DNA from: a bacterium
GTDB taxonomy: Bacteria; Hinthialibacterota; Hinthialibacteria; Hinthialibacterales; Hinthialibacteraceae
DNA length: 64,000 nucleotides
Direction of reading: 5' to 3'
NCBI GenBank assembly: GCA_963663405.2
Contig: CAXXSM010000150.1
Coordinates: 42,193 to 106,192 of the forward strand
Shown here: piece by piece, positions 1 to 17,937 of the stretch
How the letters are laid out: each line of letters begins with the position of its first letter
Numbering within the stretch: the first letter of the stretch is position 1
The notes under the pieces: model-generated
What the model was told of the DNA's origin: nothing
Database searches by the model: none
Seen by the model: only the letters and a program-made list of their open reading frames with translations
Translations under genes and position numbers: made by a program

Positions 1-436
1 CCATTGTTCCCAGTTTGACGATTTGACATTCCGGACAATTCTGCATAACCGCCCATATCACATTTAAAGTCGCCGTCAAGTTATTTGTCATCGTAAGCCG
101 GGCTTCATCATAATTCTTCATACCATACGGCGCCGCAGGCTGTTCGGCGTAATGAACGACGGCGTCAGGGATAAAATCAGAGAAGATACGATCCATAAAT
201 CGGAAATCACAGCAATCTCCAATTTCCACTTGGATCGTTTTCCCAGAGGTGTCCTTATAGATACGCGCGCGTTGGATTAAGTTCGGATTCTCGATTAACG
301 CCTCGGAATCGGTTTGTTTGGCTATTGTCCTTCGTAAATAATTGTCGACAACCATTACATCATGTTCCCGTTCGGCAAAATACATGGCTGTCGGCCAACC
401 CAGATACCCATCACCGCCTAAGACTAAAATACGCAT
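1..436 (-). CDS. sqdB: UDP-sulfoquinovose synthase-like NAD-dependent enzyme (5' part; runs off the window edge)
   Basis: Manual translation from ATG at 436 (RBS GAAGGAG): MRILVLGGDGYLGWPTAMYFA...VVDNYLRR...VVHYAEQPAAPYGM...IVKLGTM. These are SqdB/SQD1 signature motifs. Not in the ORF track because it is truncated. Confidence 0.85.
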   Translation of the reverse strand, partial: MRILVLGGDGYLGWPTAMYFAEREHDVMVVDNYLRRTIAKQTDSEALIENPNLIQRARIYKDTSGKTIQVEIGDCCDFRFMDRIFSDFIPDAVVHYAEQPAAPYGMKNYDEARLTMTNNLTATLNVIWAVMQNCPECQIVKLGTM

Positions 437-500
437 GATCTACACTCCTTCTTGCCATGGATGATTCATCCTGTTCTCTCCAACGCAATGATTAAGGCAT

Positions 501-1571
501 TCAACGCGAGCTATCCATTTCTGAAGACAATAAATTATGTAAATGCAAATATTTTCTTAATTCCTCTTTTGGCATCGCCTGGCCGGCTTTTGAATTGTAT
601 GGATGCTTCACTTGACCGGTGATGAATCCGGGATAGTGGTAATCGATCGAATCATATATTGATTTAAACGCGGGAGTGACTACATAGTAATTCTTTAATT
701 CAATCGTTCTTCGCGTTTCTTCTTCGTTGATTAATTCTTCATACATTTTTTCGCCGGATTTAACGCCGATGATTTCGATGGGCACATCGCTGGGATCCAA
801 ACCGTAAGCAGGGGCCAGTTCTTCAATCATCACTGCGGCCAGATCCTGTATTTTTACAATCGGCATTTTTGTAACAAAGACTTCTCCCCCACGCGCTAAA
901 AATACACTTTCCATAACGAGCCGGACGGCTTCTTCTAATGTCATAATGAATCGCGTCATACCGGTGTCAGTCAGTGTAACCGGCCCTTTGGAGGCGATTT
1001 GACGCTTAAACAACGGTATAACCGATCCGCGCGAGCCTAATACATTGCCAAAACGTGTTGAGGAAAAGATCGGACGTTCTCCTCGGCGGAGTGAATGCGC
1101 CGCAGTAAAAAGCCGCTCACCCATCAGTTTGGATGTGCCCATGACATTCGTTGGATTGACAGCCTTGTCTGATGAAGTGAATACAACACGATGAACATGA
1201 TTCACAATAGCGGCGTCAATAATATTCTGGACACCTAGAATGTTAGTCTGCACGGCGTCACGAGGCGATTCCTCGCACAAGATGACATGCTTTAACGCGG
1301 CGGTATGCAGGACAATATCAATTCCATTCATCTTGTGGATTAATTTCCCCCGATCCCTGACATCGCCTAAATAAAAATGAACCGCTGGATTTGTCCGATA
1401 GGTCTCGTTTAGGAAAAATAAATCACTTTCATTATTGTCAATCCCGATAATCTCAGCCGGTTGATATGGTATCAATTGCCGAAGTAATTCATGGCCAACA
1501 GTGCCACAAACGCCTGTGATTAAAACATGTTGTTCTTGCCAAGGATTCATCGGTTTTCCACAATCTTTCAT
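501..1571 (-). CDS. CapD/PseB/FlaA1-family UDP-sugar 4,6-dehydratase (Polysacc_synt_2)
   Basis: ITGVCGTVG, HTAALKHV, SSDKAVNPTNVMGTSK, TRFGNVLGSRGSVIPLF, GEKMYEEL motifs. Confidence 0.9.
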   Translation of the reverse strand: MKDCGKPMNPWQEQHVLITGVCGTVGHELLRQLIPYQPAEIIGIDNNESDLFFLNETYRTNPAVHFYLGDVRDRGKLIHKMNGIDIVLHTAALKHVILCEESPRDAVQTNILGVQNIIDAAIVNHVHRVVFTSSDKAVNPTNVMGTSKLMGERLFTAAHSLRRGERPIFSSTRFGNVLGSRGSVIPLFKRQIASKGPVTLTDTGMTRFIMTLEEAVRLVMESVFLARGGEVFVTKMPIVKIQDLAAVMIEELAPAYGLDPSDVPIEIIGVKSGEKMYEELINEEETRRTIELKNYYVVTPAFKSIYDSIDYHYPGFITGQVKHPYNSKAGQAMPKEELRKYLHLHNLLSSEMDSSR

Positions 1572-1579
1572 GAGATACG

Positions 1580-3813
1580 TTAGCCGTCCGTTTCATCCAC
1601 AATTCCCGATGGCTCTTTTCGATCGCTGACTTTTTCATGCTCGCAGCTATGTTTATCAAGCATACTTTCTAATTTCCAAAAGAGACCTTCATTCTTTTTT
1701 AGATCCTTAAAACTGCCGGCTTCTACGATCTGGCCATTGTCCAGCACATAGATCCAATCCGCAATGTACAATGTTTTCAAATGGTGCGTCACCATTAATA
1801 TAGTTGTACAATCACGCAACGAATCGAGTAATGCTAAAATCTGTCTTTCACTCTCGCTATCCAGCGCGCTGGTCGCCTCATCGACAATCAGCAGTTCTGG
1901 ATTACGCACAATCGCGCGTGCAATGGCTAATCGCTGCCGCTGCCCAACCGAAAGAGAAACGCCGCTTTCTCCAACGAGTGTATCGTATTGGTCAGGCAAT
2001 CGCATAACAAACTCATGCGCGCCGGCCTGCTGAACTGCGTGTACAATATCCTCCATTGAAGCCGAAGGATTGGCGCATTGAATATTTTCACTTACGGAAA
2101 GGTTGAATAAGAATGTGTCTTGTGAAACGTATCCAATACGTTTCCGCCATTCGCGTATGTTAAGATCGTTCATTGATTTGTTGTCGATGCGAATAGAACC
2201 TTCATTCGATTTTTGCAGGCCAATTAACAAATCGCAAATGGTTGATTTGCCCGATCCCGAAGGCCCTGCGATGGCGGTAATCCCATGCCGTGGGATTTCT
2301 AGATTTAGATTTGTGAATAAAGTAGATTGTTCATCAAACGAAAAACCAACATTTTGAAATGAGATATTTTTCTCAATCTTGTTAAACCCTATACCACTAT
2401 CCAATGATTCCCGCTCAATATTTTGATTCACGAGATCATTCGCCAAGTGAATGGAAGGTAAATACGATATCAGCGTAATCCTCTTTGATAACATCTCAGA
2501 GAGATTTAAAAACAATCGTTGAGACGCAATAACAAAGAAAGCGATTGTAGGAATAATCGTATCGATAGGGCCGATTTGCGCATAAATATAATAAAGAAGT
2601 GATCCGAGTAATATGGATACGATTAACAATTCAACGATGACTCGCGGTAATTCAGCAGCCACACCGATCCGTACAATCAAACGCATCAATCGATCGATCT
2701 TCTTTTTAAATAGCGATAATACTCGATTCTCCAGCGAAAAGGATTTCACTTGCCGGATCCCCGAAAGACTTTCCGCGCAGAGTCCGCTAACTTGCTGGTT
2801 TAAAAAAATTTTTCCTGACCGATCCCATAGGAATAACGCTGACTGATCCCCCATTGGAGAAGGACAACAATGAAACCTGCGGCAAACGAGATCAGCGTAA
2901 TAAACCAATTTTCAATAAACAATGCGATCGTAATACATACAACAAAGGCAAAACGGCCTAAGAAATCGATCGCATCCGTCAAACCTTTGGACGCAAAGAT
3001 AGGTTCTGTGATTACATTATTCAACAAGACGCCATGTTGTTGCCTGCTTAGAATTCGATAGGACGAAAAAATATAATTTTGTAAAACATTGCACGACCAA
3101 TATCCACGTAAATTGGTTAGAAAAATCTTGGAAAGATACGTTCGAGTTAGGATCAAAAGATTTTTGATAAAGATCAGTAAAAACGCGATCACGCAGACAA
3201 TCACCAAGTGATATTCTTTCTGAAAATAGTAAGACAAATAGGAAAGCAAGATCGAATGCCCGCGTTCATACATGATCAGATCAGGAAAAATGTCTCTAAA
3301 AAGATACCGATTGAATAGTTCGATTTGTTCTTGACTTAAATTTGAGAAATCTTTATCTATATAGTTCCTTGTTTCAGAAGATAGTTTTAGATTGCGGAAT
3401 GAATCTTCTTGATAGAAATCGGGTTGTTTCAGTAGTAAATTTAATTCACTAATTATACGTTCCTGATCTTCTTCATTTAGAGGTTTTTGATTGGAGATAT
3501 CCTCGACGGCCTTTTGAGACTCTTCTGTTAAGCGAATATAGATTTGTTTTCCTGGATTGGGTAGTTCCTGGCTTTTTGCGTTTAACAATTCTACACAAAA
3601 CTCTTTCCAATCGTCAATCGATTCAACGGTTAATTGAAGATCGCTGTCATTCTCTCCAGGCGTTAATATCGCCTTAAGTAAAGGCAGGATCATCCCCAAA
3701 CTTAACGTTTCCGCCACCGCCGTAAGCATGATGACCGCGAAAAGGATCATGGCGAAGTATTTATACGGACCGAAGATCGACAAAGAAAAAAGATATTTTG
3801 ATTGTTTAGACAT
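1580..3813 (-). CDS. ABC transporter permease+ATPase (PglK/MsbA-like glycan flippase), split by one frameshift at ~2801-2813
   Basis: N-terminal TM ORF (2800..3870; likely start 3813, TAATG overlap) joins the NBD ORF (GPSGSGKST, LSVGQRQR, DEATSALD) if one A is added in the GAAAAATTTTTTTA tract, giving GQEKIFLNQQVSG. Confidence 0.85.
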
Positions 3814-4784
3814 TATTTCTGAAATAGTTCGATTAGTTTTTTGATCGTGTATTGTTCCGTTTTCGCCCACGCGTCATAGGTGGAACCGCCAATGTGCGGT
3901 GTCAGCAGTAAGTTATCGTGTTCCCGCGCATAGCGCAGAAGTGGATGATCGGAAAATTCAGAGGAACCGGAAAAGCCTTTTTTAAATTCTCCTGGAAAAA
4001 CATCCATCGCCGCCCCTGCGATCCGTCCGTTTCGCAATTGTTCGAGAAGCGCGGTTGGATCAATAATCTCCGCTCGCGCTGTGTTGATAAACACGGAGCC
4101 GGATTTAAACGCTGCAAATACATCCGCGTTAAGTAAATTCTCTGTCTTTTCATTGTGCGGAACATGCAGGCTGATCACATCATTTTCTGAAACTAATTGC
4201 ATCAAATCGCCCACGCGGTTGACGCCTTCGATCCCTGAATCGTCGACATATGGATCGTAATACTGCACACGCATTCCAAAACACAATCCATACCGCGCGA
4301 CGATACTTCCTAAACGCCCTAAACCGATGATCCCCAAAGACATGGATGAAAGCATAGCCTGACCTGGAAACAAGCGCCGGTTCCAAATTCCATTCTTCAC
4401 AGAATCAAAGGACCAGGGAGTACGCCGAATCAAAGCTAGAAGCAATCCCCATGTATGTTCAGCTGTGGGAGTAATTGTCTGCAGGAATTCCTGCTCATTC
4501 GCGAGAGAAATGACAGCGATCTTTTTTTCCTGCGCGTAGCGGACATCGATGTGAGGCACACCCGTCGTATTGGAAGCGATGGCTTTTAATCGCAGGCATT
4601 GATCGATTTTCTCATTTCCACAGAAAAAACCCAACGGCGCGAACGTGCAGTCAATTTCCTTTAACACTTCAGGTGTGTCTTCTTCAGGATCTTCCAATTC
4701 AATGACATGAAAGCGATCGTGAAGTAAAGATAAAGAACCAGACTGAAACTGCAGCATGGAATAGTATAAAACGGTTGGCTTCAT
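3813..4784 (-). CDS. D-isomer-specific 2-hydroxyacid dehydrogenase (SerA-like)
   Basis: TAEHTWGLL, GIIGLGRLG, INTARAEI, MDVF.GE, TPHIGG. Confidence 0.9.
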   Translation of the reverse strand: MKPTVLYYSMLQFQSGSLSLLHDRFHVIELEDPEEDTPEVLKEIDCTFAPLGFFCGNEKIDQCLRLKAIASNTTGVPHIDVRYAQEKKIAVISLANEQEFLQTITPTAEHTWGLLLALIRRTPWSFDSVKNGIWNRRLFPGQAMLSSMSLGIIGLGRLGSIVARYGLCFGMRVQYYDPYVDDSGIEGVNRVGDLMQLVSENDVISLHVPHNEKTENLLNADVFAAFKSGSVFINTARAEIIDPTALLEQLRNGRIAGAAMDVFPGEFKKGFSGSSEFSDHPLLRYAREHDNLLLTPHIGGSTYDAWAKTEQYTIKKLIELFQK

Positions 4785-4821
4785 TATTGAAATAATCTTT
4801 ATTGTAGTAACAAAATCATCA

Positions 4822-4917
4822 TCTGAATCAGGATAGACTGGATTATTATGATTAACAGGATATGTAGTAAAAAAATCTTCCTGAAAAATCCTTCCATTCT
4901 GGACATCCTGATTCAGA
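4822..4917. repeat. REP-like palindromic element
   Basis: Perfect 13-bp inverted repeat TCTGAATCAGGAT...ATCCTGATTCAGA with internal GGAT/ATCC subrepeats; related to the copies at 61652-61742 and 61836-61880. Confidence 0.7.
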
Positions 4918-4973
4918 CAAAGAAAAATATTCTATCTTTCTATACTCTGGTAATTTAGGAAATTCGAATTATC

Positions 4974-6131
4974 TTAATACGTCATCCGCTTATTAAACAA
5001 CGAAGGGCCAATATCAACTGTCGACAATACATCCGCAATCTTGTAGCAGGAAGGTTTATCCCCATAAGGGGAAACACAATTCTGAATTTTCGCTTTAAAA
5101 TTTTCATCATAAAGGCATGTCTTCAAAGCTTGGAGTATCGCCTCTGTATCCGTTTCTACATGAATGCAGTTTTCCGCCCGCTGGCGGTCGGATTGCCGTG
5201 GCCCCACCGTGATGGATGGAAGTTTGAACGTTGGCGTTTCAATGATACCTGCGCTGGAATTGCCAACAAACACACTCGCCACGTTTTGCAATCCCCAAAA
5301 ATCCTGACATTCAATATTGGGATAGATCTGCACTCCATCGCTTCCCCGCGTTTCTTCGATTGCCTCTACAATTCCAGCGTAATCCGAATCCGTGCAGGGA
5401 TAGACAAAAATCTTTTGCGCATCGACTTGCATTACCGCATCGACAATGGATTTCATTTCTTTGTAAGAAGCGCCATCGGCGCAGGTATCGGAATGCTGCA
5501 AGATCAGCAGTAATGGCCGGTCTGGATCAAGGTTGAATTTTTTTTGGATCTCTTCCCGTGACGTGTATTCGCCCATATGAATCATATCGAGATGCGAATC
5601 CCCAACGACATGCACGCGCCAAGGTTCTTCGCCCATTTGGATAATCCGTTGCGCGCTGGCTTCGGTCGATGGAAAATGGATATGAGACATTTTCGTAATC
5701 GCATGCCGGATAAATTCATCAATATTTCCTGAGATGTCACCGCCTTGGATATGAGCGATGGGGATACGAAAATGAATCGCGGTTACAACGGTCGACAGAA
5801 TTTCACCTCGGTCACCTAACACTAATAAGATATCCGGATTCTCTTGATGAAACACCGACGACATCCAATCCATACATCGTGAAAGCGCTTTCGTACGATC
5901 GATTGAACGGTCGCCCTCCTGATCCATAGGAACCAAGTGCCGTATATCAAACCACTGCTGCACTTCGTGATACGTATTACCGAAATCTTCATAGAGATGT
6001 TGATCGGTCGCAACAATGACAATTTCCACACCGGGGCGCCGGTGCAGTTCTTTCAATGTCGGGATGATCGCGCCGAAACCACCACGTTTTCCAGTGACGA
6101 CTAATATTTTTCTCGATCGACTTGCTTTCAT
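4974..6131 (-). CDS. neuC: UDP-GlcNAc 2-epimerase, hydrolysing (NeuC/LegG family)
   Basis: VTGKRGGF, LGDRGE, HIQGGDISGNIDEFIRHAITKMSHIHF, VGNSSAGIIE, SPYGD. Confidence 0.9.
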   Translation of the reverse strand: MKASRSRKILVVTGKRGGFGAIIPTLKELHRRPGVEIVIVATDQHLYEDFGNTYHEVQQWFDIRHLVPMDQEGDRSIDRTKALSRCMDWMSSVFHQENPDILLVLGDRGEILSTVVTAIHFRIPIAHIQGGDISGNIDEFIRHAITKMSHIHFPSTEASAQRIIQMGEEPWRVHVVGDSHLDMIHMGEYTSREEIQKKFNLDPDRPLLLILQHSDTCADGASYKEMKSIVDAVMQVDAQKIFVYPCTDSDYAGIVEAIEETRGSDGVQIYPNIECQDFWGLQNVASVFVGNSSAGIIETPTFKLPSITVGPRQSDRQRAENCIHVETDTEAILQALKTCLYDENFKAKIQNCVSPYGDKPSCYKIADVLSTVDIGPSLFNKRMTY

Positions 6132-6134
6132 TTA

Positions 6135-7190
6135 TTATTCCTGTGGAGTGACTGTATGACCTATCATTTCCAATGTAATCAATGTGTCTGCGCTTACATT
6201 TACATTCAGCGAAGCGCCTAGGATTTCGTTCAGTCGTTCAGGAGAAATCCCATTGCCTGGACGCTTAAACGTAAGATCTTCACGGCGCAGGATTGTCCCC
6301 GCTGAAAGATCATGTTTTGCTACAATACTTTTTCTCGCCCACAACAGGCTTTTTTCCTCATTTAGAGTGCGGAGCATTTCCTTCGAACCGAGGGCCGCTT
6401 CCAAGCGGCGCACGCTACTGACAAATTCCACTAATTCTTCTGGATCACAAGCCACCTTCCAATCCTGCGCGTTGGGGATGTTTTTCTCAAGCGTAATATG
6501 TTTTTCAATAATCGAAGCGCCTAACATGACCGAAGCGGCGGCGATATCGTGTGTCGCGCAGTGATCCGAATATCCAACAGGTCCTAGAAATAATTCTCTT
6601 AGTGTTGAAATAACTTTTAAATTAACATCTTCCGGGGGCGTGGGATAACTGGTCACGCAGTGCATCACCGCGACTTGACGGGCCCCTTCTTGCTGAAGCG
6701 CACTAAGACTCTGTTCCAATTCTTTTTGTGTATACATTCCAGTCGAGAATACAATCGGTTTCCCCTTCTTTGCGACAGCGCGGAAAAACTCTGGATTACT
6801 GACTTCTCCAGAACCGATTTTGTACAACGGTGGATTCAGAGTCGAAAGAGCGTCTAGACTTTCCAGATCGTGCGCCGTAGCAAAAAAGAGAATCCCCGCG
6901 TCATTCGCGTATTCTTGAATGGATTGAAATTGGTCAATCGTCAGTTCTTTACATTGCATCCTCTCCGTCCATTCACTGTTCTGTGAACTGATTAGCGAAG
7001 AGGTGCGAAAGATTTGAAACTTAACCGCATCCGCTTTGGCTTGAACCGCCATGTCAACTAATTGATACGCTTTTTGGACATCACCGAAATGACTAACTCC
7101 CGCTTCCGCAATGATAAAGCATGGAGCGTTCCCACCGATTTTCCTCTCACCAGCGTAAAAGAAAGGAACAAAGAATTCTCGTTCAATCAT
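6135..7190 (-). CDS. neuB: Nonulosonic acid synthase (NeuB family) with C-terminal SAF domain
   Basis: IIAEAGVSH.G, AVKFQ, KIGSGE, MHCVTSYP, GYSDH, IIEKHITL, KRPGNGI. Confidence 0.92.
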   Translation of the reverse strand: MIEREFFVPFFYAGERKIGGNAPCFIIAEAGVSHFGDVQKAYQLVDMAVQAKADAVKFQIFRTSSLISSQNSEWTERMQCKELTIDQFQSIQEYANDAGILFFATAHDLESLDALSTLNPPLYKIGSGEVSNPEFFRAVAKKGKPIVFSTGMYTQKELEQSLSALQQEGARQVAVMHCVTSYPTPPEDVNLKVISTLRELFLGPVGYSDHCATHDIAAASVMLGASIIEKHITLEKNIPNAQDWKVACDPEELVEFVSSVRRLEAALGSKEMLRTLNEEKSLLWARKSIVAKHDLSAGTILRREDLTFKRPGNGISPERLNEILGASLNVNVSADTLITLEMIGHTVTPQE

Positions 7191-7234
7191 ACGAAGATAC
7201 CAAAAATAAGTTTTTAATTACATATGATGAATGG

Positions 7235-8347
7235 TTAAGGATGCTCGTGTCGGTTCCATAGCACATTTTGCTGAATAACTGATGTGTCAATTCGATCTTT
7301 GGCTTGCAGAATTTGGTGAAAGCAATCCCGCGTCAATGCGTCTTTAACAGTGATTCTATCCTTTGAAAGATTTCCGGAAGAATCTGTTGTCTGTGGAAAC
7401 GTTCCATCCGCGGTTTCTTTCCTCGGATTCGAAACGGATTTAATTTCTACGGAATAACCTGCGTTTTTGGCTTGCTGTTGAACAATTTCCGCTAATTGAT
7501 TGATGGTGAGTGTTTCTAAATATTGAATTGCAGTGCGAATGGAACCGGGGATTGGAGATTCCTGTATCGACCTCTCAACACAAGAAATAGCGTTATCGAT
7601 ATGCAATAACGCGCAGGTTCGGTTCCCTTCCCCATAAACAGTCAAGGGATAGCCGATTGCTGCTTGCACAGTAAAGCGGTTTACAACCGATCCAAACACT
7701 TCATCGTAATGAAAGGCGATATGTAAGTATGGATGCAGTTTTGATTCATCCGTTTCGAAACCGTAGACAATACCTTGCTGTAAGACAGTCGCCTTCATTC
7801 CCCAATTTTGACAGGCGAATTGTATATTCTGCACACACTGAACATCCGCCACATGATAGAAAGACGCAAAACTGGATGAAGACGTATTATCTTCACCTTC
7901 GCATTTGTGTAATCCCTGTATCGAGATTAGATGAATGTCCCGCTCCGCCCGTTGGACAGCGAAGAGAACGTTCAAGATTCCCGTGACGTTGTTTTGATGG
8001 GTCAACACCGCGTTCGCGCGGTTTTTCATGGAGAAGGGAGCCGAGGGCTGACCAGCGCAGTGTATGACCACATCCGGCTGCGCTCTGTCAAAGACGTGAT
8101 AGATAGCCCCTACATTTGTCATATCACTAATGTAGTACTGGATCTCTTTTCCTGTCATCTCACGGAATTTCGCGACACGCCGGTGAATGGGAAATACTTC
8201 AAACAGCGGTTCGGCCCCCATTTCCATTTCCCATTTCCGCTTGATCAGGTTATCCATAATAGTGACATCATAACCCAGCGACGCCAGGCGCATAGAAAGA
8301 GGCCATCCAATGTATCCATCCCCACCGATTACAAGTACTTTCGTCAT
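7235..8347 (-). CDS. SqdB-like NAD-dependent epimerase/dehydratase, catalytically divergent paralogue
   Basis: GGDGYIGWP, HCAGQPSAPFSM, QGIVYG, YDEVFGSVVNRF.VQAAIGYPLTVYGEG match SqdB. The KLGTMGEYG motif is absent and SFYHLSK reads SFYHVAD. Confidence 0.8.
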   Translation of the reverse strand: MTKVLVIGGDGYIGWPLSMRLASLGYDVTIMDNLIKRKWEMEMGAEPLFEVFPIHRRVAKFREMTGKEIQYYISDMTNVGAIYHVFDRAQPDVVIHCAGQPSAPFSMKNRANAVLTHQNNVTGILNVLFAVQRAERDIHLISIQGLHKCEGEDNTSSSSFASFYHVADVQCVQNIQFACQNWGMKATVLQQGIVYGFETDESKLHPYLHIAFHYDEVFGSVVNRFTVQAAIGYPLTVYGEGNRTCALLHIDNAISCVERSIQESPIPGSIRTAIQYLETLTINQLAEIVQQQAKNAGYSVEIKSVSNPRKETADGTFPQTTDSSGNLSKDRITVKDALTRDCFHQILQAKDRIDTSVIQQNVLWNRHEHP

Positions 8348-8350
8348 GAA

Positions 8351-9892: not shown

Positions 9893-9933
9893 GGATTTAT
9901 TTTCAAATTAGAGAACAAAAAAGGCAGAATGAA

Positions 9934-10980
9934 TTATGAATCGCTGATATCTTCAAGTTTAAGTAAAACATCGGCGGGCAGATCGCGCGCGGCTTTTTTC
10001 CCAACGACCGTATTGAGTTTGTAACTCGGAATACCGGAACCAGGACGTTTCACCCATACATTCACACGCTCTTGAAACACTTCATTGGCTTTAACCGGCG
10101 CAATAGTGACAACGCTTTCCGAAAAACCATGCCGCACTTTTTGCGCTTCATCGTTGAGAGATTTCTCACTCCCCAAGGCGGATGAAATCGCGCGGACGCC
10201 TTCCACCAGTTCCTTCAGTTCGTCCGGTTCAATGGAGGATTGTTGATCGATGCCAGGCAGCGCGCGGGAGAGTGTAAAATGTTTTTCTACTAGACATGCG
10301 CCTTTGGCCGCCGCGCCGAAACAGGCGTAATTACCTTGACAGTGATCCGATAGCCCCACCAGGACACTGCACTCGTCCCGCAGGCGGTCCATCACTCCCA
10401 AATTGACATTCTCATAGGCTGTTGGATAGTTGGATGTGCATTGCATCACAATCAGATCCGGCGTTTTCCCGCGAATGACATTGACGGCGTTTTTCACTTC
10501 ATCCCAATCGGCGGTGCCAGTTGAGAGAATGACGGGCTTCCCTTTTTCGGCGATGTACGTCAGAAAAGGAATATTCGTCACTTCGCCCGATCCAATTTTG
10601 TACGCGGGGACCCCCACCTTTTCAAGCAGATCCACCGCTTCCACAGAAAACGGCGTGGACAAAAAAAGAATGCCCTGTTTTTCCGCCTCCTCTTTGAGCG
10701 CCATGTGATCGTCAAAAGATAGTCCACAATCCGTCATGATATCAAATAACGATCGTGTAACGTGTGAACCGGCGTCGCTGCCGATCGACCGGTCAGGCAG
10801 CATTTCGGCTTCAGCGATATGGGTTTGAAATTTAATAATATCCGCGCCCGCCGCTTTCGCTGACCGCACCATCTCCAAGGCGATTTCACGGTCGCCGTTA
10901 TGGTTGATCCCCGCCTCGGCGATCACCAGCGTCCGGTTACCCGGTCCCACGTTATAAGGTCCAATGGTTATCGCATCCAC
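9934..10980 (-). CDS. neuB: Nonulosonic acid synthase (NeuB family), second copy
   Basis: IAEAGINHNG, IKFQTH, STPFS, KIGSGE, MQCTSNYP, GLSDH, EKHFTL, WVKRPGSGI. Confidence 0.92.
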   Translation of the reverse strand: MDAITIGPYNVGPGNRTLVIAEAGINHNGDREIALEMVRSAKAAGADIIKFQTHIAEAEMLPDRSIGSDAGSHVTRSLFDIMTDCGLSFDDHMALKEEAEKQGILFLSTPFSVEAVDLLEKVGVPAYKIGSGEVTNIPFLTYIAEKGKPVILSTGTADWDEVKNAVNVIRGKTPDLIVMQCTSNYPTAYENVNLGVMDRLRDECSVLVGLSDHCQGNYACFGAAAKGACLVEKHFTLSRALPGIDQQSSIEPDELKELVEGVRAISSALGSEKSLNDEAQKVRHGFSESVVTIAPVKANEVFQERVNVWVKRPGSGIPSYKLNTVVGKKAARDLPADVLLKLEDISDS

Positions 10981-11007
10981 AATTTCTCTCCTCCCATGAC
11001 CCGGTAT

Positions 11008-12018
11008 TTATAGCCATTCGTCGATGGTATAGTCCACATCGGACGTAGCCCATTTCGGATAAATAATACCATGTTCGATGACGTGTTTCACGCCTTCTTC
11101 TGTGCTGATCCTTGGCTCAAATCCCAATATCTCACGCGCTTTCGCCGTATCACAAAAGCGCTCAAATATTTCGCGTTCTTTCGTCCGGTCCGTATTGGCA
11201 AATTGATTCTGTATCTTCGGTTCGAGTTTATCTTCTTTACCACACAGCCGGATGATCATCTGGGCAAGTTCCAATAATGTAAGTGGATCACCGCTGTTCC
11301 CGATGTTAAACACTTCACCATCCGCCTTGGGATTAAAGAGCGCATCCAGCAGCCCGCGCGCCGAATCCTGCGAATAGCAGTAAGACCGGACCTGCTTTCC
11401 ATCACCATACACGACAGGTGGCTTGCCTTCCAGGCAATTGCGAATGAACTTTGGAATGACAAACTGCGCGATCTGGAACGGGCCATACGTATTAAAGAAA
11501 CGCATAATCGTATAATTGAATTCCGGATAGCGCTGCGCGTACGCCTGACAAAGTTCCTCTCCGGTCATTTTCGTCACGGCGTAGACGGTCTTGCCATGTG
11601 TACGGGTTTTTTCCGTTACTGGATTCTCCAACGGTTCACCGTACACTTCAGACGAGGAAGCGAAAATAATTTTCTTTACACGGTGTTGAATGGCGATATC
11701 CAAGACATTCTGCGTTCCATTGACGTTGATCTCCAGGCAACGGAGTTTGTTGGTTTCCGTGCGCCGTACCCCTAAATACGCGGCGAGATGAACGACGGCG
11801 TCGCAGCCGGCCAATGCGTCCCGCAGTGACGAACAGTCTAGAATCGAACCATAGTAAATATCAATCTTCGGATCGATCGACGACTCGACACGCGCGATCT
11901 GTCCACGCAAATCAAACAACACAACGGAAACGCCCCGCCGGACCAGTTCTTTGCAGACTTGCATTCCAATGCAGCCCGCCCCTCCTGTGACTAACACTTT
12001 TTTTAATTCGTACGGCAT
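11008..12018 (-). CDS. NAD-dependent nucleotide-sugar epimerase/dehydratase (extended SDR)
   Basis: VTGGAGCIG, VHLAA, ASSSEVYG, YAVTK (YxxxK), RFFNTYGP. Confidence 0.9.
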   Translation of the reverse strand: MPYELKKVLVTGGAGCIGMQVCKELVRRGVSVVLFDLRGQIARVESSIDPKIDIYYGSILDCSSLRDALAGCDAVVHLAAYLGVRRTETNKLRCLEINVNGTQNVLDIAIQHRVKKIIFASSSEVYGEPLENPVTEKTRTHGKTVYAVTKMTGEELCQAYAQRYPEFNYTIMRFFNTYGPFQIAQFVIPKFIRNCLEGKPPVVYGDGKQVRSYCYSQDSARGLLDALFNPKADGEVFNIGNSGDPLTLLELAQMIIRLCGKEDKLEPKIQNQFANTDRTKEREIFERFCDTAKAREILGFEPRISTEEGVKHVIEHGIIYPKWATSDVDYTIDEWL

Positions 12019-12074
12019 ATTCCATCCGTCCTTTACAAAGGAGATTCATTTCTATATTGTTGAGTTTACACAAT

Positions 12075-13335
12075 TCAACAATTTCCAGCGCACATACATT
12101 GACGTTTTAAAGGCTGAAACTTCAGATAGGTCAACGAACGCCAAAGCCACTCGAAGGGACCAAACTGAAAATAACACAGCCAGATCACAGAATACATTAA
12201 TTGTATAATCCAGATTGTGAAGACAAAAAGAAACTGTTGATAACGTTCCAAATAACCATACCACCCCAATCCATGCCCATAAAAGAATAATGTGCCCAGA
12301 ATGGATTGCATCAGATAATTGGTCAACGCCAGCTGACCCGCCGCGGAAAATCCCCGCGTCAAACACCCTGCCTTTCCACTCTTAATCCACAGAACCATTA
12401 TGCTGATCCACATTAATGCGATCAATGGAGCGGAAAATAAATAAAGAGGCCTGCAGAACATACTATACGCCTGGTAATCCCAGCTTGTTTGACACAAAAT
12501 GATGATATCCAACAAGGTTAATGGTATCCCCACGAACAGACCGATTCCGATTAGGTATCGATACAAGCGCTTGCTTCCTTCTCCGCTCAACACTCCCCAT
12601 TTGAACAGCGCCATACCTAACAGCATCATTGCGCCAACCTGAAAGATACGCCCATGAAAGAAAAAACTTCTTACCTCAAGATGATACGCGATGAAAAAAC
12701 GCAATGACATTTGGTCTTTATAACCACCGCGGAAAGTGTCGAGAAAATGCTGGATAGTACGATTTGACACTTCCCAGTTTCCATGAATCCGGCTTTCCAG
12801 CGCCGCGCCTTCCAACTGATAGATTTGCCAACCATGTTCTAACGTAATCCCTGCATAAATCAGATGAAAGACAATCGCCAGGAGAAGTAGCCATTTGGGT
12901 GAGAGTTTTCTGAACAAACAAAGAACGGCCGCGCACATCGTATACCGCGTTAAGACATCGCCGGACCAAATTAAATAGGCGTGCGCCAATCCCATAAGCC
13001 CCATCACAATGATCCGCCGGTAATAGACAAAACAACGGATTGCGGCCCCGCGCTTCCACCCGTGACATCATTAGAACAATACCCGCGCCGAACAGCATCG
13101 AGAAGATGCTAATGAATTTCGAATCAAACAAGAGATGGCTAATGAACCAGACGCCGAAATTGATCCCGCTGAAATCTCCATACGTATTCGGATTGTCATA
13201 CGCGAACGCGGGCATCGCCATCACTTGGATATTCATCATCAGAATCCCCAACACCGCCATACCACGCACAGCGTCCAATGTTTGGATACGATAAGGTTGG
13301 CTTATGGGGCCAATCTGGGAATTCTGCATTGGCAA
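12075..13335 (-). CDS. DUF418/YeiB-family membrane protein, frameshifted at ~13030
   Basis: RIQTLDAVRGMAVLGILMMN...KFISIFSMLFGAG in one ORF and GQLALTNYLMQS...GPFEWLWRSLTY in the other. Removing one T from CCGTTGTTTTGTC gives PLFVYYRRIIVMGLMG. Confidence 0.85.
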
Positions 13336-13347
13336 ACAACCAAGTGA

Positions 13348-14523
13348 TCAGTATGCGATGATCTTTTGGATGAGGTTATTGTTGATTTCAACCGATTCGA
13401 GAACGTCTACGATCTTCTGAGCGGCATCTCCATTTCCATATGGATTGACGACATTCTTCACTTTTTCTTTAAACGTCTCGTCATAAAGGGCGGTTTGAAT
13501 CGCGTTGATAATTTCATCGACATCATGGGATACATCGATCACATTCTCCGCCCGCAGACGGCCGTTCTGCCGCGTGCCGATATTCACTGTAGGCAGTTGA
13601 AAACTCGGCGCTTCGCGAATCCCCGCCGACGAATTGCCGACCATAACCGAAGCATGGCGCATCAAACTGAGAAAATCCTGGTTCTCAATATTCGGAAAAA
13701 TATGAAAGCGCGAGAGTCCCTTCATCTCATCGATGATCTCCCGCCCCCCCGCGTCGGCGTTCGAGTAGATCGTGACAACCTCCGCTTCGGGGAAATTCAT
13801 CAACGCTTGAATGGCGATCCGGGCCTGCGCGACTCCCTGCCCGTATTCCGTCGTTACGGGATGGTACGTAAAGAGAAAGAGCGGACGCTCCAGATCAAAG
13901 CCGAATTGAGCGGCCAGTTCTTCTTTCCCCTTCAATTCAACCGAGTTGATAATATCAAGATAAGGACAACCGGTTTGAAACACCATCTCCGGATTCTCGC
14001 CCATTTTGATGATACGCTCAGCGGCGTCGGGCGTGGCGGGAAAATGGATGTGCGACAGTTTGGTGACGGCGTGGCGGATGCTTTCATCAATCGTGCCCGT
14101 CACCTCACCGCCTTGGATGTGCGCAATGGGAAGATTTAACAACGCCGCCGACTGTGCGGCGGCCAAGGTTTCAACGCGGTCTACCGTCAATAGAAAAATA
14201 TCAGGTTGAATCTCATGGAGCGCGTCCGCGATCCCATCCGAGCAGCGCGCGGCCGCTTTCGCCATCCCATAAGGACTGTCGTCGTCCGTATACATATTCA
14301 CCCGCGCGGCGATATCAAAACCGTCCTGCTCAATCTGTTCAACGGTATATCCAAATTCTTTCAACAAATGAATACCCGTGACAATCAGTTTTAATTCCAG
14401 ATTCGGGCGTCTCGCGATTTCATGCAAAACGGATTTCACACGAGGATAATCAGCCCGTGTCCCAGTCATGCACGCGATCCGTCGTTTGTTCTTTTTCATC
14501 GATTTTCTATCCAGTACATTCAA
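13348..14523 (-). CDS. neuC: UDP-GlcNAc 2-epimerase, hydrolysing (NeuC family), second copy; likely start 14499
   Basis: MTGTRADY, HIQGGEVTGTIDESIRHAVTKLSHIHF, TYHPVT, VGNSSAGIREAP, NPYGNG. Confidence 0.92.
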   Translation of the reverse strand: MNVLDRKSMKKNKRRIACMTGTRADYPRVKSVLHEIARRPNLELKLIVTGIHLLKEFGYTVEQIEQDGFDIAARVNMYTDDDSPYGMAKAAARCSDGIADALHEIQPDIFLLTVDRVETLAAAQSAALLNLPIAHIQGGEVTGTIDESIRHAVTKLSHIHFPATPDAAERIIKMGENPEMVFQTGCPYLDIINSVELKGKEELAAQFGFDLERPLFLFTYHPVTTEYGQGVAQARIAIQALMNFPEAEVVTIYSNADAGGREIIDEMKGLSRFHIFPNIENQDFLSLMRHASVMVGNSSAGIREAPSFQLPTVNIGTRQNGRLRAENVIDVSHDVDEIINAIQTALYDETFKEKVKNVVNPYGNGDAAQKIVDVLESVEINNNLIQKIIAY

Positions 14524-14531
14524 TTATGGAA

Positions 14532-15242
14532 TTACTCTTCAAAAAAATAGCGGTACGTCTCTTTTCGCCGGTTCAAATAAAATTCCGCCAAAAGAAAATC
14601 ATCTGGGTAGTCGATGTCAATGTCAACCCAGCCGTCATCCAATACAAAAGGTTTGATGTTCGAACCGAGAAAACAATCGTTCTTCAATGTCCGCGCCGTG
14701 CGGAACATGAAGAGATGCCCAGTGAGCACATGCAGTATTTTTGAATTGGAGAGCCGGTGGGGAAGTTGTTTCTCGTAGGGCGTCCAAAATTCCTCCCCCA
14801 ATTCGCCAAAAATCTCTCTGGATTTCCGAACCGACACCATCGAATCCGCTTCGGGCGATCCACGCATTTCCTCAATGGCCTTATTGATCATCTGGGGCGT
14901 ACGGAACGGATTGGTCGGTTGCAGCAAGATCAGAATATCCACCGAATAGCCTTGTTGATCCTCAATCCATTCAACCGCATGCTGAATGACACGAAAATTG
15001 GGCACGCTGTCATCACACAATTCCTGCGGCCGCCGGATAATTTCCGCGCCGTAAGAGGCGCCTAAATTCGCGATCTCATCACTTTCCGTACTGACATATA
15101 CGCCTGTCAACGAAGACGCCAGTTTGGCGGCTTTCACCGAGTAATAAAAAAGAGGATAACCGCAGAGTGGTTTAACGTTTTTATTTGGCAATCGGTTGGA
15201 ATGGCCTTTCGCTGGAATAATGGCGGCAACGTTTTCTTTCAC
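14532..15242 (-). CDS. neuA: Acylneuraminate cytidylyltransferase (CMP-nonulosonate synthetase)
   Basis: AIIPAKGHSNRLPNKN, VSTES, LLQPTNPFR, DIDIDYPDDF. Confidence 0.9.
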   Translation of the reverse strand: MKENVAAIIPAKGHSNRLPNKNVKPLCGYPLFYYSVKAAKLASSLTGVYVSTESDEIANLGASYGAEIIRRPQELCDDSVPNFRVIQHAVEWIEDQQGYSVDILILLQPTNPFRTPQMINKAIEEMRGSPEADSMVSVRKSREIFGELGEEFWTPYEKQLPHRLSNSKILHVLTGHLFMFRTARTLKNDCFLGSNIKPFVLDDGWVDIDIDYPDDFLLAEFYLNRRKETYRYFFEE

Positions 15243-15257
15243 GAAATTACTCTCTCC

Positions 15258-15914
15258 CTATTTCTCCCGTGTTAGTTCCACGTCCATTGCCGCATCCCCC
15301 CAAATAGCGCGAAGCGAACGGCTGTCCTCCATCAGTGGGAATCCACAAAGGGCGCCCAACGCGTAGGTGTCTCCCGCATAAAGAGTCATAAAACGCGAGA
15401 GGAAAGCCACAACGAGCGCCGGTGAATGCGCGTAATCATTCGGAGCCTGTTCATCCGATAACGCCGGCGAAGATTCCACTCGCAAAGGAGTGTCACGCTC
15501 CCGTTCAATCCGCTCTAAGGGCATCAAATCCCCCAGCGTATGAAATCCCTCGATCCACTGCCCATAATAAACCGCGATTCCATGATCCCGAAGCCGAATC
15601 TGATGTTCCAGCCGCGTCAATTCATCAATCACGTAAGGGCTGTACAATCCGATCCACAACCGGCATCCAGCAATATATCGCCCCGCGTCTTCGATGGACA
15701 CGCCTTGGCAATCTGCCTTGAGTTCAATCGCCAAACCGGCGAATCCCATCACTTTTCCCGCAAACTTGGGAATACAGATCGACCCGGCGTTGTACGACGC
15801 GACATGCGGAGGACATAAATACGCCAGAGGAAAGCGGCTTTTCTTAATATCCCACGTTCGTATGGAAAAATCCGAATTTCCGACGACAAACCAAAATTCA
15901 CCATTCAGGGCCAT
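15258..15914 (-). CDS. Degenerate fumarylacetoacetate-hydrolase-like protein
   Basis: Weak FAH-fold traces (AGLAIEL...DAGRYIAG; VAFLSRFMTLYAGD); overlaps the upstream FAH gene. Confidence 0.5.
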   Translation of the reverse strand: MALNGEFWFVVGNSDFSIRTWDIKKSRFPLAYLCPPHVASYNAGSICIPKFAGKVMGFAGLAIELKADCQGVSIEDAGRYIAGCRLWIGLYSPYVIDELTRLEHQIRLRDHGIAVYYGQWIEGFHTLGDLMPLERIERERDTPLRVESSPALSDEQAPNDYAHSPALVVAFLSRFMTLYAGDTYALGALCGFPLMEDSRSLRAIWGDAAMDVELTREK

Positions 15915-16942
15915 ATCTCTTCCTCACTTTCCCGCAGGTCGTTTACTGGATTTCGGAGCACTCCGATCTTCTCGTATTCAATCTCGAAGTAATCCTCATC
16001 TGTCAGACGCATATCCTGCTCAACCGTATACCCATCGATACTCATCGTTCCCATGTGGATTATCATCCCTGGCTTCAACGTGAACATGCGGGAAAGATAT
16101 TCAATCGTATGCTCAATGTCATTGACCAGGGCTTGGCTGTACGAACGCTCCCTCTGTATGCCAGATAGGCGGTTATAAATCATCAGGTTATATGGATCAG
16201 GAACCTCATCTCTCGATACCAGATAAGGACCGACCGGCGCAAATGTGTCAATGCTGCGCGAATAGAACGAGGTAGTATGCCGCGCGGCGAACACACTACT
16301 GTCGGTTTCGACCAGCGCTTCATCAATCCCCCGTAGAGCGTACTGCTTCCAAGTGTCCGAACACATATCGTTGACCAGCGTATACCCAGCGACATACTCC
16401 ATCGCCTCTTTCGCGGGTACGTACCTCCCGGTTTTTCCAATAATGACGCCCAACTCCGCCGCAGAACGAAAATTGCGTAAATAGGGTGGAATCGTTACGG
16501 TCTCTTTATGACCGATCAAAGCCGTACGGGAACGGGGGCGCAGGAATCCCTGGGGATAGCCGGGAATCTGATAAGGCTTGTCCCGGAAAAAGAACGGTGA
16601 ATTGCCGCCAATCCCAAACATCAACGGTGGATTGGGAATCGGGGGCAGCCAACGTATCGCTTCGCAATCAAACCGCGCGTTCCGTAAAAGAAAAGAATCC
16701 CCCTCTTCCATCACCCAAATAATAAAATCATTCATCCGTCGAAGACCGTCGGAGCCTTCCATTCCTAATTCCAGCAGGTCAATCAAACGAAAACCGGTGA
16801 TATCGGTTTGGAAAAATCGGGGCTTGCTAAAGGTTTTCATATTGGGAACCGCCTTCACTACTTCATGAATATCAAAGACGGTGTCTCCAACCACCAAACC
16901 GGTCCGCTCTTTTTCATTGGCAATAAATGACGCGAGCTTCAT
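15905..16942 (-). CDS. Fumarylacetoacetate hydrolase family protein
   Basis: ELGVIIGK..RYV...AMEYVAGYTLVND, DTFAPVGPYLV.RDEVPDP, YLSRMFTLKPG, IGVLRNPV. Confidence 0.85.
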   Translation of the reverse strand: MKLASFIANEKERTGLVVGDTVFDIHEVVKAVPNMKTFSKPRFFQTDITGFRLIDLLELGMEGSDGLRRMNDFIIWVMEEGDSFLLRNARFDCEAIRWLPPIPNPPLMFGIGGNSPFFFRDKPYQIPGYPQGFLRPRSRTALIGHKETVTIPPYLRNFRSAAELGVIIGKTGRYVPAKEAMEYVAGYTLVNDMCSDTWKQYALRGIDEALVETDSSVFAARHTTSFYSRSIDTFAPVGPYLVSRDEVPDPYNLMIYNRLSGIQRERSYSQALVNDIEHTIEYLSRMFTLKPGMIIHMGTMSIDGYTVEQDMRLTDEDYFEIEYEKIGVLRNPVNDLRESEEEIWP

Positions 16943-17020
16943 TGTTTCGATTCCTTATATGTTTAGGCTGGTAAAATGGAAACGTTGTATTTTTGGATTT
17001 CTTGATCGCATGAGATATAT

Positions 17021-17257
17021 TTACTGCATTATTCCAAATGGCTTAGAAATATCGGGGGGCAACGGATCATCAAAATTGTCCATCATCTTAATCTTTCCTT
17101 TCATCGCCCCTGGAACACGAGATTCTTTGGGAGTTCTGGCTATAGGAACGATTTTCGCAATAGGTTTTCCATTTTGTTCCAATATCACTTCGTGCCCCGC
17201 TTTTACACGCTCGAGCAATTCCAACAAATTTGCTTTTTGAATATCGGTTGTAAGCAT
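17021..17257 (-). CDS. Phd/YefM-family type II antitoxin (no cognate toxin adjacent)
   Basis: KANLLELLERVKAGHEVILEQNGKPIAKIVP plus RVPGAMKGKIKMMDNFDDPLP tail; start placed at MLTTDIQ. Confidence 0.8.
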   Translation of the reverse strand: MLTTDIQKANLLELLERVKAGHEVILEQNGKPIAKIVPIARTPKESRVPGAMKGKIKMMDNFDDPLPPDISKPFGIMQ

Positions 17258-17307
17258 TGAATTGAGCAATTCCAAATCCATTCTTTTGAAGCGCACCTTA
17301 TCAAGTA

Positions 17308-17937
17308 TCAAAAACAGGACACAAAGGATATCTGTTTCTCTTTCGCGATTTCTTCCACTTGCGCGAGTTCATCATTCTTGTCGGTATGAGAGGCTAACGA
17401 GAGGAGTAAATCCGCCGAACCGTTTTTCCGCAGCCAATCCAGATTGTAAATCGAATGATCCACACAGCGTTTTCCCTCATTTTTAGGATCGACAATGCCT
17501 ACTAACTCCATCCGCAGTTCCCGCACGGCGAGATAGGCCAGTTCCGCGACTTCCCCGCTCCCATAAAAAATGACTCGCTTCTTGTTTTGCGCGGCGAAAG
17601 GACGCATGGCCTCATTGGCTTTCCGGCGCACTTCGCGGATGTATTGAAACGAATACTCTAAAAATTCATACGTCAGCCGGGCTTTTTCTTTAATTCCGCT
17701 TGGTGTCAACAAATAGCGCAGCCGTCTTCTTTCCAGCTGTTTCGTCTTGACATATCCTTTATAAATTACCCGCTTCAGATATGAATTCACCAAACCCACC
17801 GCCACGCCAAGGCGGGTCGCCAAGTCTTTTTGGGTGGTGTCCGGCTCATCAGAGATCGCTTTGAGAAGATTGAGGATCATCTCCTCATCGCGGTCCATAA
17901 CGCCGTTTTCGTCTCTGGTTTGGGAAGGATTTTTCAT
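17308..17937 (-). CDS. MarR-type winged-helix regulator associated with polysaccharide loci, with C-terminal Rossmann-like domain
   Basis: TQKDLATRLGVAVGLVNSYLKRVIYKGYVK...YLLTPSGIKEKARLTYEFL; FYGSGEVAELAY. Confidence 0.85.
   Translation of the reverse strand: MKNPSQTRDENGVMDRDEEMILNLLKAISDEPDTTQKDLATRLGVAVGLVNSYLKRVIYKGYVKTKQLERRRLRYLLTPSGIKEKARLTYEFLEYSFQYIREVRRKANEAMRPFAAQNKKRVIFYGSGEVAELAYLAVRELRMELVGIVDPKNEGKRCVDHSIYNLDWLRKNGSADLLLSLASHTDKNDELAQVEEIAKEKQISFVSCF

Follow-up and report, generated by a model that had tools for sequence, protein, structure and literature searches.

A surface-glycan operon that links SqdB to a divergent NeuC/NeuB pair: a possible route to a sulfonated nonulosonic acid

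The window analysed here is a stretch of 64,000 nucleotides on contig CAXXSM010000150.1 (G000:C150:42193-106192) from a bacterium of the Hinthialibacteraceae. The source assembly comprises 8.44 Mb in 170 contigs at 47% G+C and is rated 82% complete. Genes were identified from a listing of open reading frames (ORFs) and from Pfam and NCBIfam profile scans of the window proteins. From position 17937 down to position 1, all long frames in the ORF listing lie on the minus strand, with intergenic gaps of mostly 3-60 bases. This run makes up the beginning, 16-17 genes, of an operon for a surface glycan; the whole operon has at least 22 genes and contains two modules for the synthesis of nonulosonic acids (nonulosonates, NulO). 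A preliminary description of the same DNA had listed a co-directional operon with two NeuB, two NeuC, one NeuA, two SqdB-like, CapD, short-chain dehydrogenase/reductase (SDR), KpsS-like and ATP-binding cassette (ABC) genes, and every one of these was found, all on the minus strand. It had also raised the idea that one NeuC/NeuB pair, together with a relative of the UDP-sulfoquinovose synthase SqdB, could yield a 9-deoxy-9-sulfo-nonulosonate. Comparative genomics, the one line of evidence followed here, supports that idea.

The module in question runs, in the direction of transcription, from a KpsS-like gene through SqdBL1, NeuB2, NeuC2, a 2-hydroxyacid dehydrogenase and an ABC exporter to CapD and SqdB2. 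As the preliminary description had anticipated, the operon continues past the window edge, where the adjoining DNA adds at least six genes: the rest of SqdB2, a protein of 427 amino acids (aa) for which the profile scan gave no family match, a glycosyltransferase (388 aa), a methyltransferase, a DUF502 protein and a GT4-family glycosyltransferase (372 aa) located five genes downstream of SqdB2. NeuB1 and NeuB2 share 34% identity, and NeuC1 and NeuC2 share 42%; the two pairs are therefore read as old paralogues and not as recent copies.

A search for sqdB-neuB-neuC synteny, which had been put forward as a check, showed that the arrangement recurs across phyla. SqdB loci with 10-kb flanks were taken from species-representative genomes and metagenomes, among the matches listed, and were searched with the operon proteins by tblastn. 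Homologues in the multi-protein SqdB locus scans had at most 62% identity to the queries among the matches listed, and a single-protein scan gave one locus. NeuB and/or NeuC adjoined SqdB at 35 of the 236 loci, again among the matches listed: 16 of the 81 from genomes, 16 of the 80 from metagenomes and 3 of a further 75. The carriers belong to Pseudomonadota, Thermodesulfobacteriota, Actinomycetota, Saccharimonadota and Parcubacteria, among others; they include Desulfatibacillum alkenivorans DSM 16219 (locus L065) and metagenome-assembled genomes labelled Rhodocyclaceae, Hyphomicrobiales, Rhodospirillales, Gaiellaceae, Saccharibacteria, Parcubacteria and Falkowbacteria. Recurring gene orders are NeuC-SqdB-NeuB and ABC-NeuB-NeuC-2-hydroxyacid dehydrogenase-NeuA-SqdB. 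SqdB, NeuC, NeuB and a NeuA-like gene thus form a recurring set in many phyla, of which the window module is a local version.

After removal of duplicates, SqdB occurred with NeuB2/NeuC homologues in 39 of 310 loci. A NeuA-like gene was present in 26 of these 39 module loci, a 2-hydroxyacid dehydrogenase in 15, an SDR in seven (never together with the 2-hydroxyacid dehydrogenase), CapD in three and DegT in two. A SqdB tree of 104 rows placed 14 of the 16 genome-set SqdBs with NulO neighbours in one clade of 15 rows (SH-aLRT 91), separate from the plant and cyanobacterial enzymes. Some accessory genes recur in the modules: a B12-binding radical SAM enzyme was seen in 7 loci, and the HisF-like and GATase members of a pair, as well as a methyltransferase, were each seen in 8. 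Examples are at L021:7025-9166, L276:16478-18658, L177:2762-3550 and L243:853-1533. These are likely decoration enzymes of the NulO.

NeuB2 (6135-7190) has the NeuB TIM-barrel and the SAF/AFP domain (PF03102, PF08666), as does NeuB1, and both score below the cut-off of 399.65 bits of the N-acetylneuraminate synthase equivalog TIGR03569 (309.4 for NeuB2, 362.8 for NeuB1). The identity of NeuB2 to E. coli K1 NeuB is 35%, and its best solved matches include B. subtilis SpsE. NeuB proteins were labelled solely by their distance to SqdB. Of 24 NeuBs nearest to SqdB, 22 formed one clade with NeuB2 (SH-aLRT 99), which leaves out E. coli K1 NeuB, NeuB1, a third copy termed NeuB3 and all eight copies located farther from SqdB. 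A joint tree of 109 rows gave a clade made of 30 of 32 SqdB-linked NeuBs, NeuB2 and two exceptions, L275 and L277 (SH-aLRT 95). All members of the NeuB2 clade have W74, R77, H107, W284 and R310, with an aromatic side chain at position 35 (F35 in NeuB2). They also keep E29, K57, Q59, K124, H210, H231 and R310 without exception, which is the metal-, PEP (phosphoenolpyruvate)- and N-acetyl-binding set. When NeuB2 was aligned to the N. meningitidis enzyme (1xuu), H107 and W284 replaced Phe112 and Phe288, and R310 corresponded to Arg314. These three meningococcal residues line the active site according to the available text of PMC6795526; the portion of PMC11339185 consulted describes Arg314 as binding the N-acetyl carbonyl and Phe288 as part of a hydrophobic pocket.

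The association was also assessed in the reverse direction, with 80 loci chosen by likeness to NeuB2 alone and a signature consisting of the aromatic residue at 35, W74, R77, H107 and W284. The signature was present in 15 of the 80. SqdB accompanied 13 of these 15 (12 as full genes and one cut by a contig end) and none of the 65 loci without the signature; six of the loci repeat contigs already seen, so the SqdB-chosen and NeuB-chosen sets are not fully independent. These results bear out the claim that the divergent NeuC/NeuB pair is specifically tied to SqdB: NeuB2 lies in a clade whose members neighbour SqdB almost exclusively, and NeuC2 carries the GKRGG motif of a clade with the same association. 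The motifs by which the pair had been picked out, GVSH in NeuB2 and TGKRGGF in NeuC2, are both present.

NeuC2 (4974-6131) scored 365.6 bits with the hydrolysing-epimerase model TIGR03568, above its cut-off of 235.9. Its identity to E. coli K1 NeuC is 28%, and its best solved match is a diacetylbacillosamine 2-epimerase. In the NeuC tree, the 17 rows with TGKRGGF or GKRGG grouped as one clade (SH-aLRT 99), and each of them comes from a SqdB module. The other SqdB-linked NeuC type reads TTRGN(Y/F)AK, and the classical TG(S/T)RA(D/E)Y is seen in E. coli K1 NeuC and in NeuC1. Among the NeuB-chosen loci, SqdB was found with all five NeuCs of the GKRGG type, with the single one of the TRGN type and with one of 44 of other types. 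NeuC2 keeps the equivalents of Asp112 and Asp143 (D107 and D138), Arg321 and Gln322 of human GNE, residues that are named in the available sections of PMC4793188.

SqdB2 is of the canonical UDP-sulfoquinovose-synthase type. Within the window the gene occupies positions 1-436, with codons 1-145 at 2-436; the remainder lies past the edge, and the full protein has 382 aa. The protein shares the full-length architecture of Arabidopsis SQD1 (1qrr), to which it aligns without gaps over 381 residues (431.8 bits). It keeps GGDGYLGW (the Rossmann GxxGxxG), TMGEYG and YHTTK (YHxxK) and so carries the signature [ST]MG...Yx3K that the accessible part of PMC8987622 gives for SQD1 and Agl3. SqdB2 differs from known members of the SQD1/SqdB/Agl3 family in its context, which is a NulO operon and not evidently a sulfolipid locus with sqdX or an archaeal N-glycan locus. 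It also scores below the equivalog cut-off of NF041015 (436.4 vs 575 bits), a narrow model whose cut-off was passed by just one of three matching reference genomes. In the SqdB tree it groups with the Desulfatibacillum enzyme. Like many bacterial homologues, SqdB2 has proline at the position of SQD1 Arg101. This residue was considered as a mark of a new substrate and rejected, since proline is common there in bacterial SqdBs without NulO neighbours. A role as the sulfolipid housekeeping gene of a phototroph was rejected as well: the genome gave no Photo_RC match and none of 19 same-family genomes has a SqdB homologue. In the phylum sample of 35 genomes, two of the other 34 have one.

The preliminary description had assigned sulfonation to the SqdB-like gene that adjoins the NeuB2/NeuC2 pair. 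That assignment does not stand: the gene, SqdBL1 (7235-8347), has neither the [ST]MG loop nor the lysine of YxxxK, and the candidate is instead the canonical SqdB2 at the window edge. An alignment showed that a deletion of 18 residues removes the TMGEYG loop from SqdBL1 (SIQGLHK instead of KLGTMGEYG...) and that YHxxK reads YHVAD, with Asp for the SDR Lys, so that the signature [ST]MG...Yx3K is absent. Alanine mutants of Met145, Tyr182 and Lys186 of Agl3 are inactive and those of Glu147 and Tyr148 strongly impaired, as described in the available excerpt of PMC4388408. Since residues of this set (Met145 and Lys186) are lost, SqdBL1 should not act as a sulfoquinovose synthase. Its fold is nevertheless predicted to be that of SQD1, with a Rossmann domain. 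The AlphaFold model (predicted TM-score, pTM, 0.84; mean predicted local distance difference test score, pLDDT, 77) had 1i24, 1qrr and 1i2b, all SQD1, as top matches at TM 0.89-0.90.

SqdBL1 is not alone in this loss. Its relatives P0004-P0007 and P0034 also lack the triad and form a supported clade with the metagenome variant P0001; the sisters P0002 and P0003 are canonical, and SqdBL1 itself is on a long branch in the SqdB tree. A profile search was made of 1.84 billion library representatives, and 129 rows of 300-480 aa from the best 150 matches were aligned. The triad was partly missing in 22 of the 129, of which 14 were outside the starting set, and dead SqdB paralogues are therefore recurrent and not a single accident. 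P0001 is 97% identical to SqdBL1 and differs from it at 11 of 370 residues. Positions 7131-8055 are covered, with 30 base differences and no gap, by a contig from a run of another study, and two of the four listed base differences are the P265S and I270M changes of P0001. If that contig and P0001 represent the same variant, most of the differences in SqdBL1 are silent, which, as a rough inference, suggests constraint. SqdBL1, unable to work as an SDR, would be either a non-catalytic partner or a slowly decaying copy.

Two other genes of the operon are broken in the assembly. The ABC exporter (1580-3870), of the MsbA/PglK type by its Pfam and NCBIfam family matches, is split at an A5T7 run (GGAAAAATTTTTTTAAA, window 2800-2815). 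One extra T at 2808 in contigs of runs X2 and X3, which belong to two other studies, joins the frames, and contigs of runs X1 and X4, from the likely source sample, end at 2808. A DUF418/YeiB-family membrane protein (12075-13335) occupies two frames, both of which are matched by NF008093; contigs of runs X1 and X2 lack one base at 13029, and removal of this base restores the frame. Both splits, at depths of just 2-3.5, are probably assembly errors because contigs of other runs are in frame. The assembly seems prone to indel errors, since several DegT genes elsewhere (C113, C91) are split as well. Alternatively, the split in the ABC gene is possibly a slippage site in a surface-glycan exporter.

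These observations bear on whether the module is still in service. It is conceivable, if unlikely, that the module is partly out of use: the original SqdB would have decayed to SqdBL1, NeuC2 and NeuB2 would be idle or act on an unsulfonated substrate, and SqdB2 with CapD would be a later, unrelated acquisition. The missing loop and lysine of SqdBL1 and its long branch agree with this. A second SqdB-like copy of the SqdBL1 kind was found in none of 39 other module loci, and the best matches of CapD and SqdB2 both lie in one foreign locus, L065. Decay of this kind is, however, difficult to reconcile with an intact frame of 370 codons, with the ungapped contig and the small number of residue changes in P0001, and with the clade of intact, recurring proteins that lack the triad. 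The split ABC and DUF418 genes, being in frame in other runs, do not indicate decay either.

Evidence for the use of sulfite was found in the related loci. Genes of the PF01507 family (3'-phosphoadenosine 5'-phosphosulfate/adenosine 5'-phosphosulfate, PAPS/APS, reductases) lie beside SqdB inside the modules, and the BLAST cluster that contains them spans 9 of the 39 module loci. Examples are L008:12255-15134, L029:9290-9967, L033:3025-3723 and L098:5601-6278; in L008, a CysN-like GTPase is fused to the PF01507-type domain within the module. These genes look like a dedicated sulfite supply, and because they adjoin SqdB within the modules, the module SqdBs would be expected to use sulfite. The same genes make it very improbable that the module SqdB-like enzymes are 4,6- or 5,6-dehydratases leading to a sulfur-free 9-deoxy NulO. 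Agl3 does yield UDP-glucose-5,6-ene when sulfite is absent (available text of PMC4388408 and PMC8987622), which gives that explanation a chemical basis. However, SqdB2 has the SQD1-type signature and not the dehydratase Asp/Glu pair (same portion of PMC8987622), and the operon already contains a true 4,6-dehydratase, CapD. This short CapD/PglF-type UDP-GlcNAc 4,6-dehydratase (501-1571; PF02719, 315.6 bits; PseB model TIGR03589, 277 bits vs a cut-off of 407.75) reads SSDKA...MGTSK, with Met for the SDR Tyr, and thereby has the TDK...Mx3K signature that the consulted part of PMC8987622 assigns to the PglF/WbpM type. It is 61% identical to the CapD that adjoins SqdB in L065 and probably feeds a 6-deoxy-HexNAc (6-deoxy-N-acetylhexosamine) branch.

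Ten long forms of SqdB were scanned for fusions to NeuB or NeuC, and none was seen among them; they carry inteins or class-V aminotransferase fusions instead. The class-V aminotransferase domain, of the NifS or cysteine-sulfinate-desulfinase type, occurs in four of the ten (P0172, P0183, P0190, P0232) and is a possible built-in donor of sulfur or sulfite. The homologues P0124, P0155 and P0270 are interrupted by inteins with LAGLIDADG domains.

The explanation that best accommodates these results, and one that we consider about evenly poised between right and wrong, is a route from SqdB2 through NeuC2 and NeuB2 to a 9-deoxy-9-sulfo-nonulosonate in one of the two NulO modules. SqdB2 would add sulfite at C6 of a UDP-hexose, probably UDP-GlcNAc. 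A 2-acetamido substrate is favoured because NeuB2 keeps the equivalent of Arg314 and NeuC2 keeps the Arg321/Gln322 pair; if so, SqdB must accept UDP-GlcNAc. NeuC2 would then remove UDP and invert C2, and NeuB2 would join the 6-deoxy-6-sulfo-hexosamine to PEP, with C6 of the hexosamine becoming C9 of the product. The single NeuA would activate the 9-deoxy-9-sulfo-nonulosonate with CMP, the PF05159 transferase would add it to a glycan, and the ABC protein would export the result. The other module (NeuA, NeuC1, SDR and NeuB1) would lead to a second, non-aminated NulO. A more elaborate version, which we hold only tentatively, combines the SqdB to NeuC2 to NeuB2 route with a role for SqdBL1 as a pseudoenzyme: it would have been retained as a non-catalytic partner with NAD or a UDP-sugar as its ligand, and would belong to the wider group of dead SqdBs.

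Several findings weigh against the sulfo-nonulosonate route. The SqdB copy that adjoins NeuB2 and NeuC2 here is, judged by its residues, catalytically dead. Module SqdBs differ from other bacterial SqdBs at just four clade-specific positions, none in known catalytic motifs. No SqdB is known to accept UDP-GlcNAc, and the consulted parts of PMC4388408 and PMC8987622 report only UDP-glucose as a substrate. The replacements of Phe112 by His and of Phe288 by Trp in NeuB2 fall in the hydrophobic pocket by the N-acetyl group and could mean another N-acyl group and not a C9 sulfonate. The beta2-alpha2 loop of N. meningitidis NeuB carries the C6-OH ligand Asn74 (accessible section of PMC11339185); the short loop of NeuB2 was considered as proof of a changed C6 ligand, and this argument is weakened because NeuB3, outside the clade, also has a short loop. 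GKRGG was likewise considered as a sulfonate-binding site and is not read as one, because it aligns to human GNE residues 18-24, around the UDP-binding Arg19 and Ser23 in the consulted text of PMC4793188, and not to the region of sugar C6. Two of the 15 loci with the NeuB signature, L275 and L277, lack both SqdB and NeuC within 10 kb. One NeuA is available for two NulO modules. Finally, PF01507, NIR_SIR and DsrA gave no match in the 82%-complete genome of the window. No means of forming sulfite or sulfide from sulfate was thus seen in it, which also agrees with a module partly out of use.

Part of this evidence agrees better with two separate sugars, a possibility that we take seriously but consider doubtful. 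SqdB2 would make UDP-sulfoquinovose from UDP-glucose, the sole substrate reported in the consulted parts of PMC4388408 and PMC8987622, a glycosyltransferase would add the sugar to the same polymer or to a lipid, and NeuC2 and NeuB2 would make an unusual, unsulfonated NulO; the genes would travel together through one conserved repeat unit. Such an arrangement is consistent with the ordinary known motifs of SqdB2 and the module SqdBs, and with the position of SqdB2, six genes from NeuB2 and beside CapD, as in L065. The 388-aa and 372-aa glycosyltransferases lie just downstream of SqdB2, and one glycosyltransferase family recurs in seven module loci. No glycosyltransferase family is common to most module loci, however, and in many loci SqdB lies between NeuC and NeuB without a transferase. 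Two separate sugars also leave unexplained why dedicated, nearly SqdB-exclusive subfamilies of NeuB (13/15 vs 0/65) and of NeuC exist, and why pocket residues are changed. The 9-deoxy-9-sulfo-nonulosonate remains the reading that we prefer.

The remaining genes of the operon are described from its first gene onwards. The co-directional run begins with a MarR-family EPS-associated regulator (17308-17937; PF13412 match; TIGR04176, 70.1 bits vs a cut-off of 88). Two FAA-hydrolase-family genes follow (15905-16942 and 15258-15914; PF01557, 131.8 and 31.1 bits); they are outside the conserved module, with a match in just 1 of the 75 loci of the third SqdB-selected set. The NeuA-like CMP-ulosonate cytidylyltransferase (14532-15242; PF02348, 66.4 bits; PseF model TIGR03584, 108.8 vs a cut-off of 205.7) is 30% identical to E. 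coli K1 NeuA and is the sole cytidylyltransferase of the operon; the whole genome has two PF02348 matches. NeuC1 (13348-14523) is a hydrolysing 2-epimerase of the classical type (TGTRADY) that scored 449 bits with TIGR03568. Downstream of the DUF418/YeiB gene lies an extended SDR (11008-12018; SSEVYG...YAVTK) of the sugar-nucleotide epimerase/dehydratase/decarboxylase type, with 197 bits for PF01370 and, as its best NCBIfam match, a LegB-like model at 164 bits vs a cut-off of 475. The PF05159 (KpsC/KpsS-type) protein, a putative ulosonic-acid transferase of 513 aa (8351-9892), matches its family over residues 252-420 with 44.7 bits, and homologues with 30-37% identity adjoin SqdB in loci L021 and L039. 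The 2-hydroxyacid dehydrogenase (3813-4784) is a PGDH-like D-2-hydroxyacid dehydrogenase (PF02826, 157 bits). Together with the FAA-hydrolase, DUF418/YeiB and MarR-type genes, it had not been named in the preliminary description.

NeuB1 (9934-10980; PF03102 and SAF domains) belongs to a clade of seven rows (SH-aLRT 99) that consists of second copies in SqdB loci, including L056, L135, L033, L063 and L131. As the clade turned up here only among second NeuBs of such module loci, the two NulO modules seem to travel together. The preliminary description had assigned an ordinary Neu5Ac-like sugar to the pair that contains NeuB1. This is not established, given the placement of NeuB1 in the second-copy clade, apart from E. 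coli K1 NeuB, and its 35.5% identity to that enzyme. Neither NeuB1 nor NeuB2 grouped with E. coli K1 NeuB in the trees, a grouping of both with characterised enzymes having been named beforehand as evidence against the sulfonate idea. NeuB3 (335 aa; G000:C70:78653-79660, L349:8653-9660) is located away from NeuC, NeuA and DegT genes and 2 kb from an MptE-like/Maf-type protein of 613 aa, a setting that hints at flagellin glycosylation with NulO.

Elsewhere in the window, an ISL3-family transposase (26797-28050) adjoins a leucine-rich-repeat protein of 1662 aa (28210-33198). Another leucine-rich-repeat protein is at 24925-26022 and a CARDB-domain protein of 1039 aa at 21590-24709.

Compared with the CMP-Neu5Ac pathway (E. 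coli K1 kps region 2; N. meningitidis SiaA/SiaC/SiaB), the window has the same NeuC, NeuB and NeuA families in a single operon. NeuC2 scores above the NeuC equivalog cut-off, and NeuB2 keeps the metal-, PEP- and N-acetyl-binding residues. However, NeuB2 and NeuC2 lie in clades apart from the E. coli K1 enzymes, NeuB2 has His and Trp for Phe112 and Phe288, and the gene set of the window includes SqdB. The legionaminic acid pathway (PglF-type dehydratase, aminotransferase, acetyltransferase, LegG, LegI and LegF) resembles the proposed route in its logic, as an SDR alters C6 of a sugar nucleotide ahead of a NeuC-like epimerase and a NeuB-like synthase. It differs in that the C6-modifying enzyme of the window is an SQD1-type sulfite adder and not only a dehydratase. 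Neither the window operon nor the 20 kb past its edge showed the DegT aminotransferase or the N-acetyltransferase of the legionaminic (Leg) and pseudaminic (Pse) acid pathways, and DegT is confined to the two module loci already counted. The preliminary description had noted the absence of Leg/Pse aminotransferase genes from the visible part, and this holds just past the edge as well: there is no DegT on this contig, and the 17 PF01041 matches of the genome are all on other contigs. The 513-aa PF05159 protein is like KpsS of the KpsC/KpsS CMP-Kdo transferases in sharing an operon with a gene for ulosonate activation and an ABC exporter, although its resemblance to E. coli K1 KpsC and KpsS extends over just 72-91 residues.

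Nonulosonic acids such as sialic, legionaminic and pseudaminic acid shape the recognition of microbes by hosts, phages and lectins. To our knowledge, the known natural variants all differ in hydroxyl, amino and acyl groups. A full-text literature search, with most subscription journals outside its coverage, found no report of a link between SqdB or sulfoquinovose and NulO, and the names predicted for a sulfo-nonulosonate returned nothing but O-sulfated sialic acid. A large study of NeuB phylogeny (PMC8208679) contains no word that starts with 'sulfo'. The proposal is testable, as the gene set is present in a cultured organism, Desulfatibacillum alkenivorans DSM 16219, and its three core enzymes are small, soluble proteins. 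With a dead SqdB paralogue among the module genes, the place of pseudoenzymes in sugar-nucleotide pathways becomes a question. If the proposed route is correct, the sulfoquinovose synthase family would have a third role in addition to those in sulfolipid and archaeal N-glycan synthesis, and the carbon-bound sulfonate at C9 would define a new chemical class of nonulosonic acids that are permanently charged and resistant to sulfatases.

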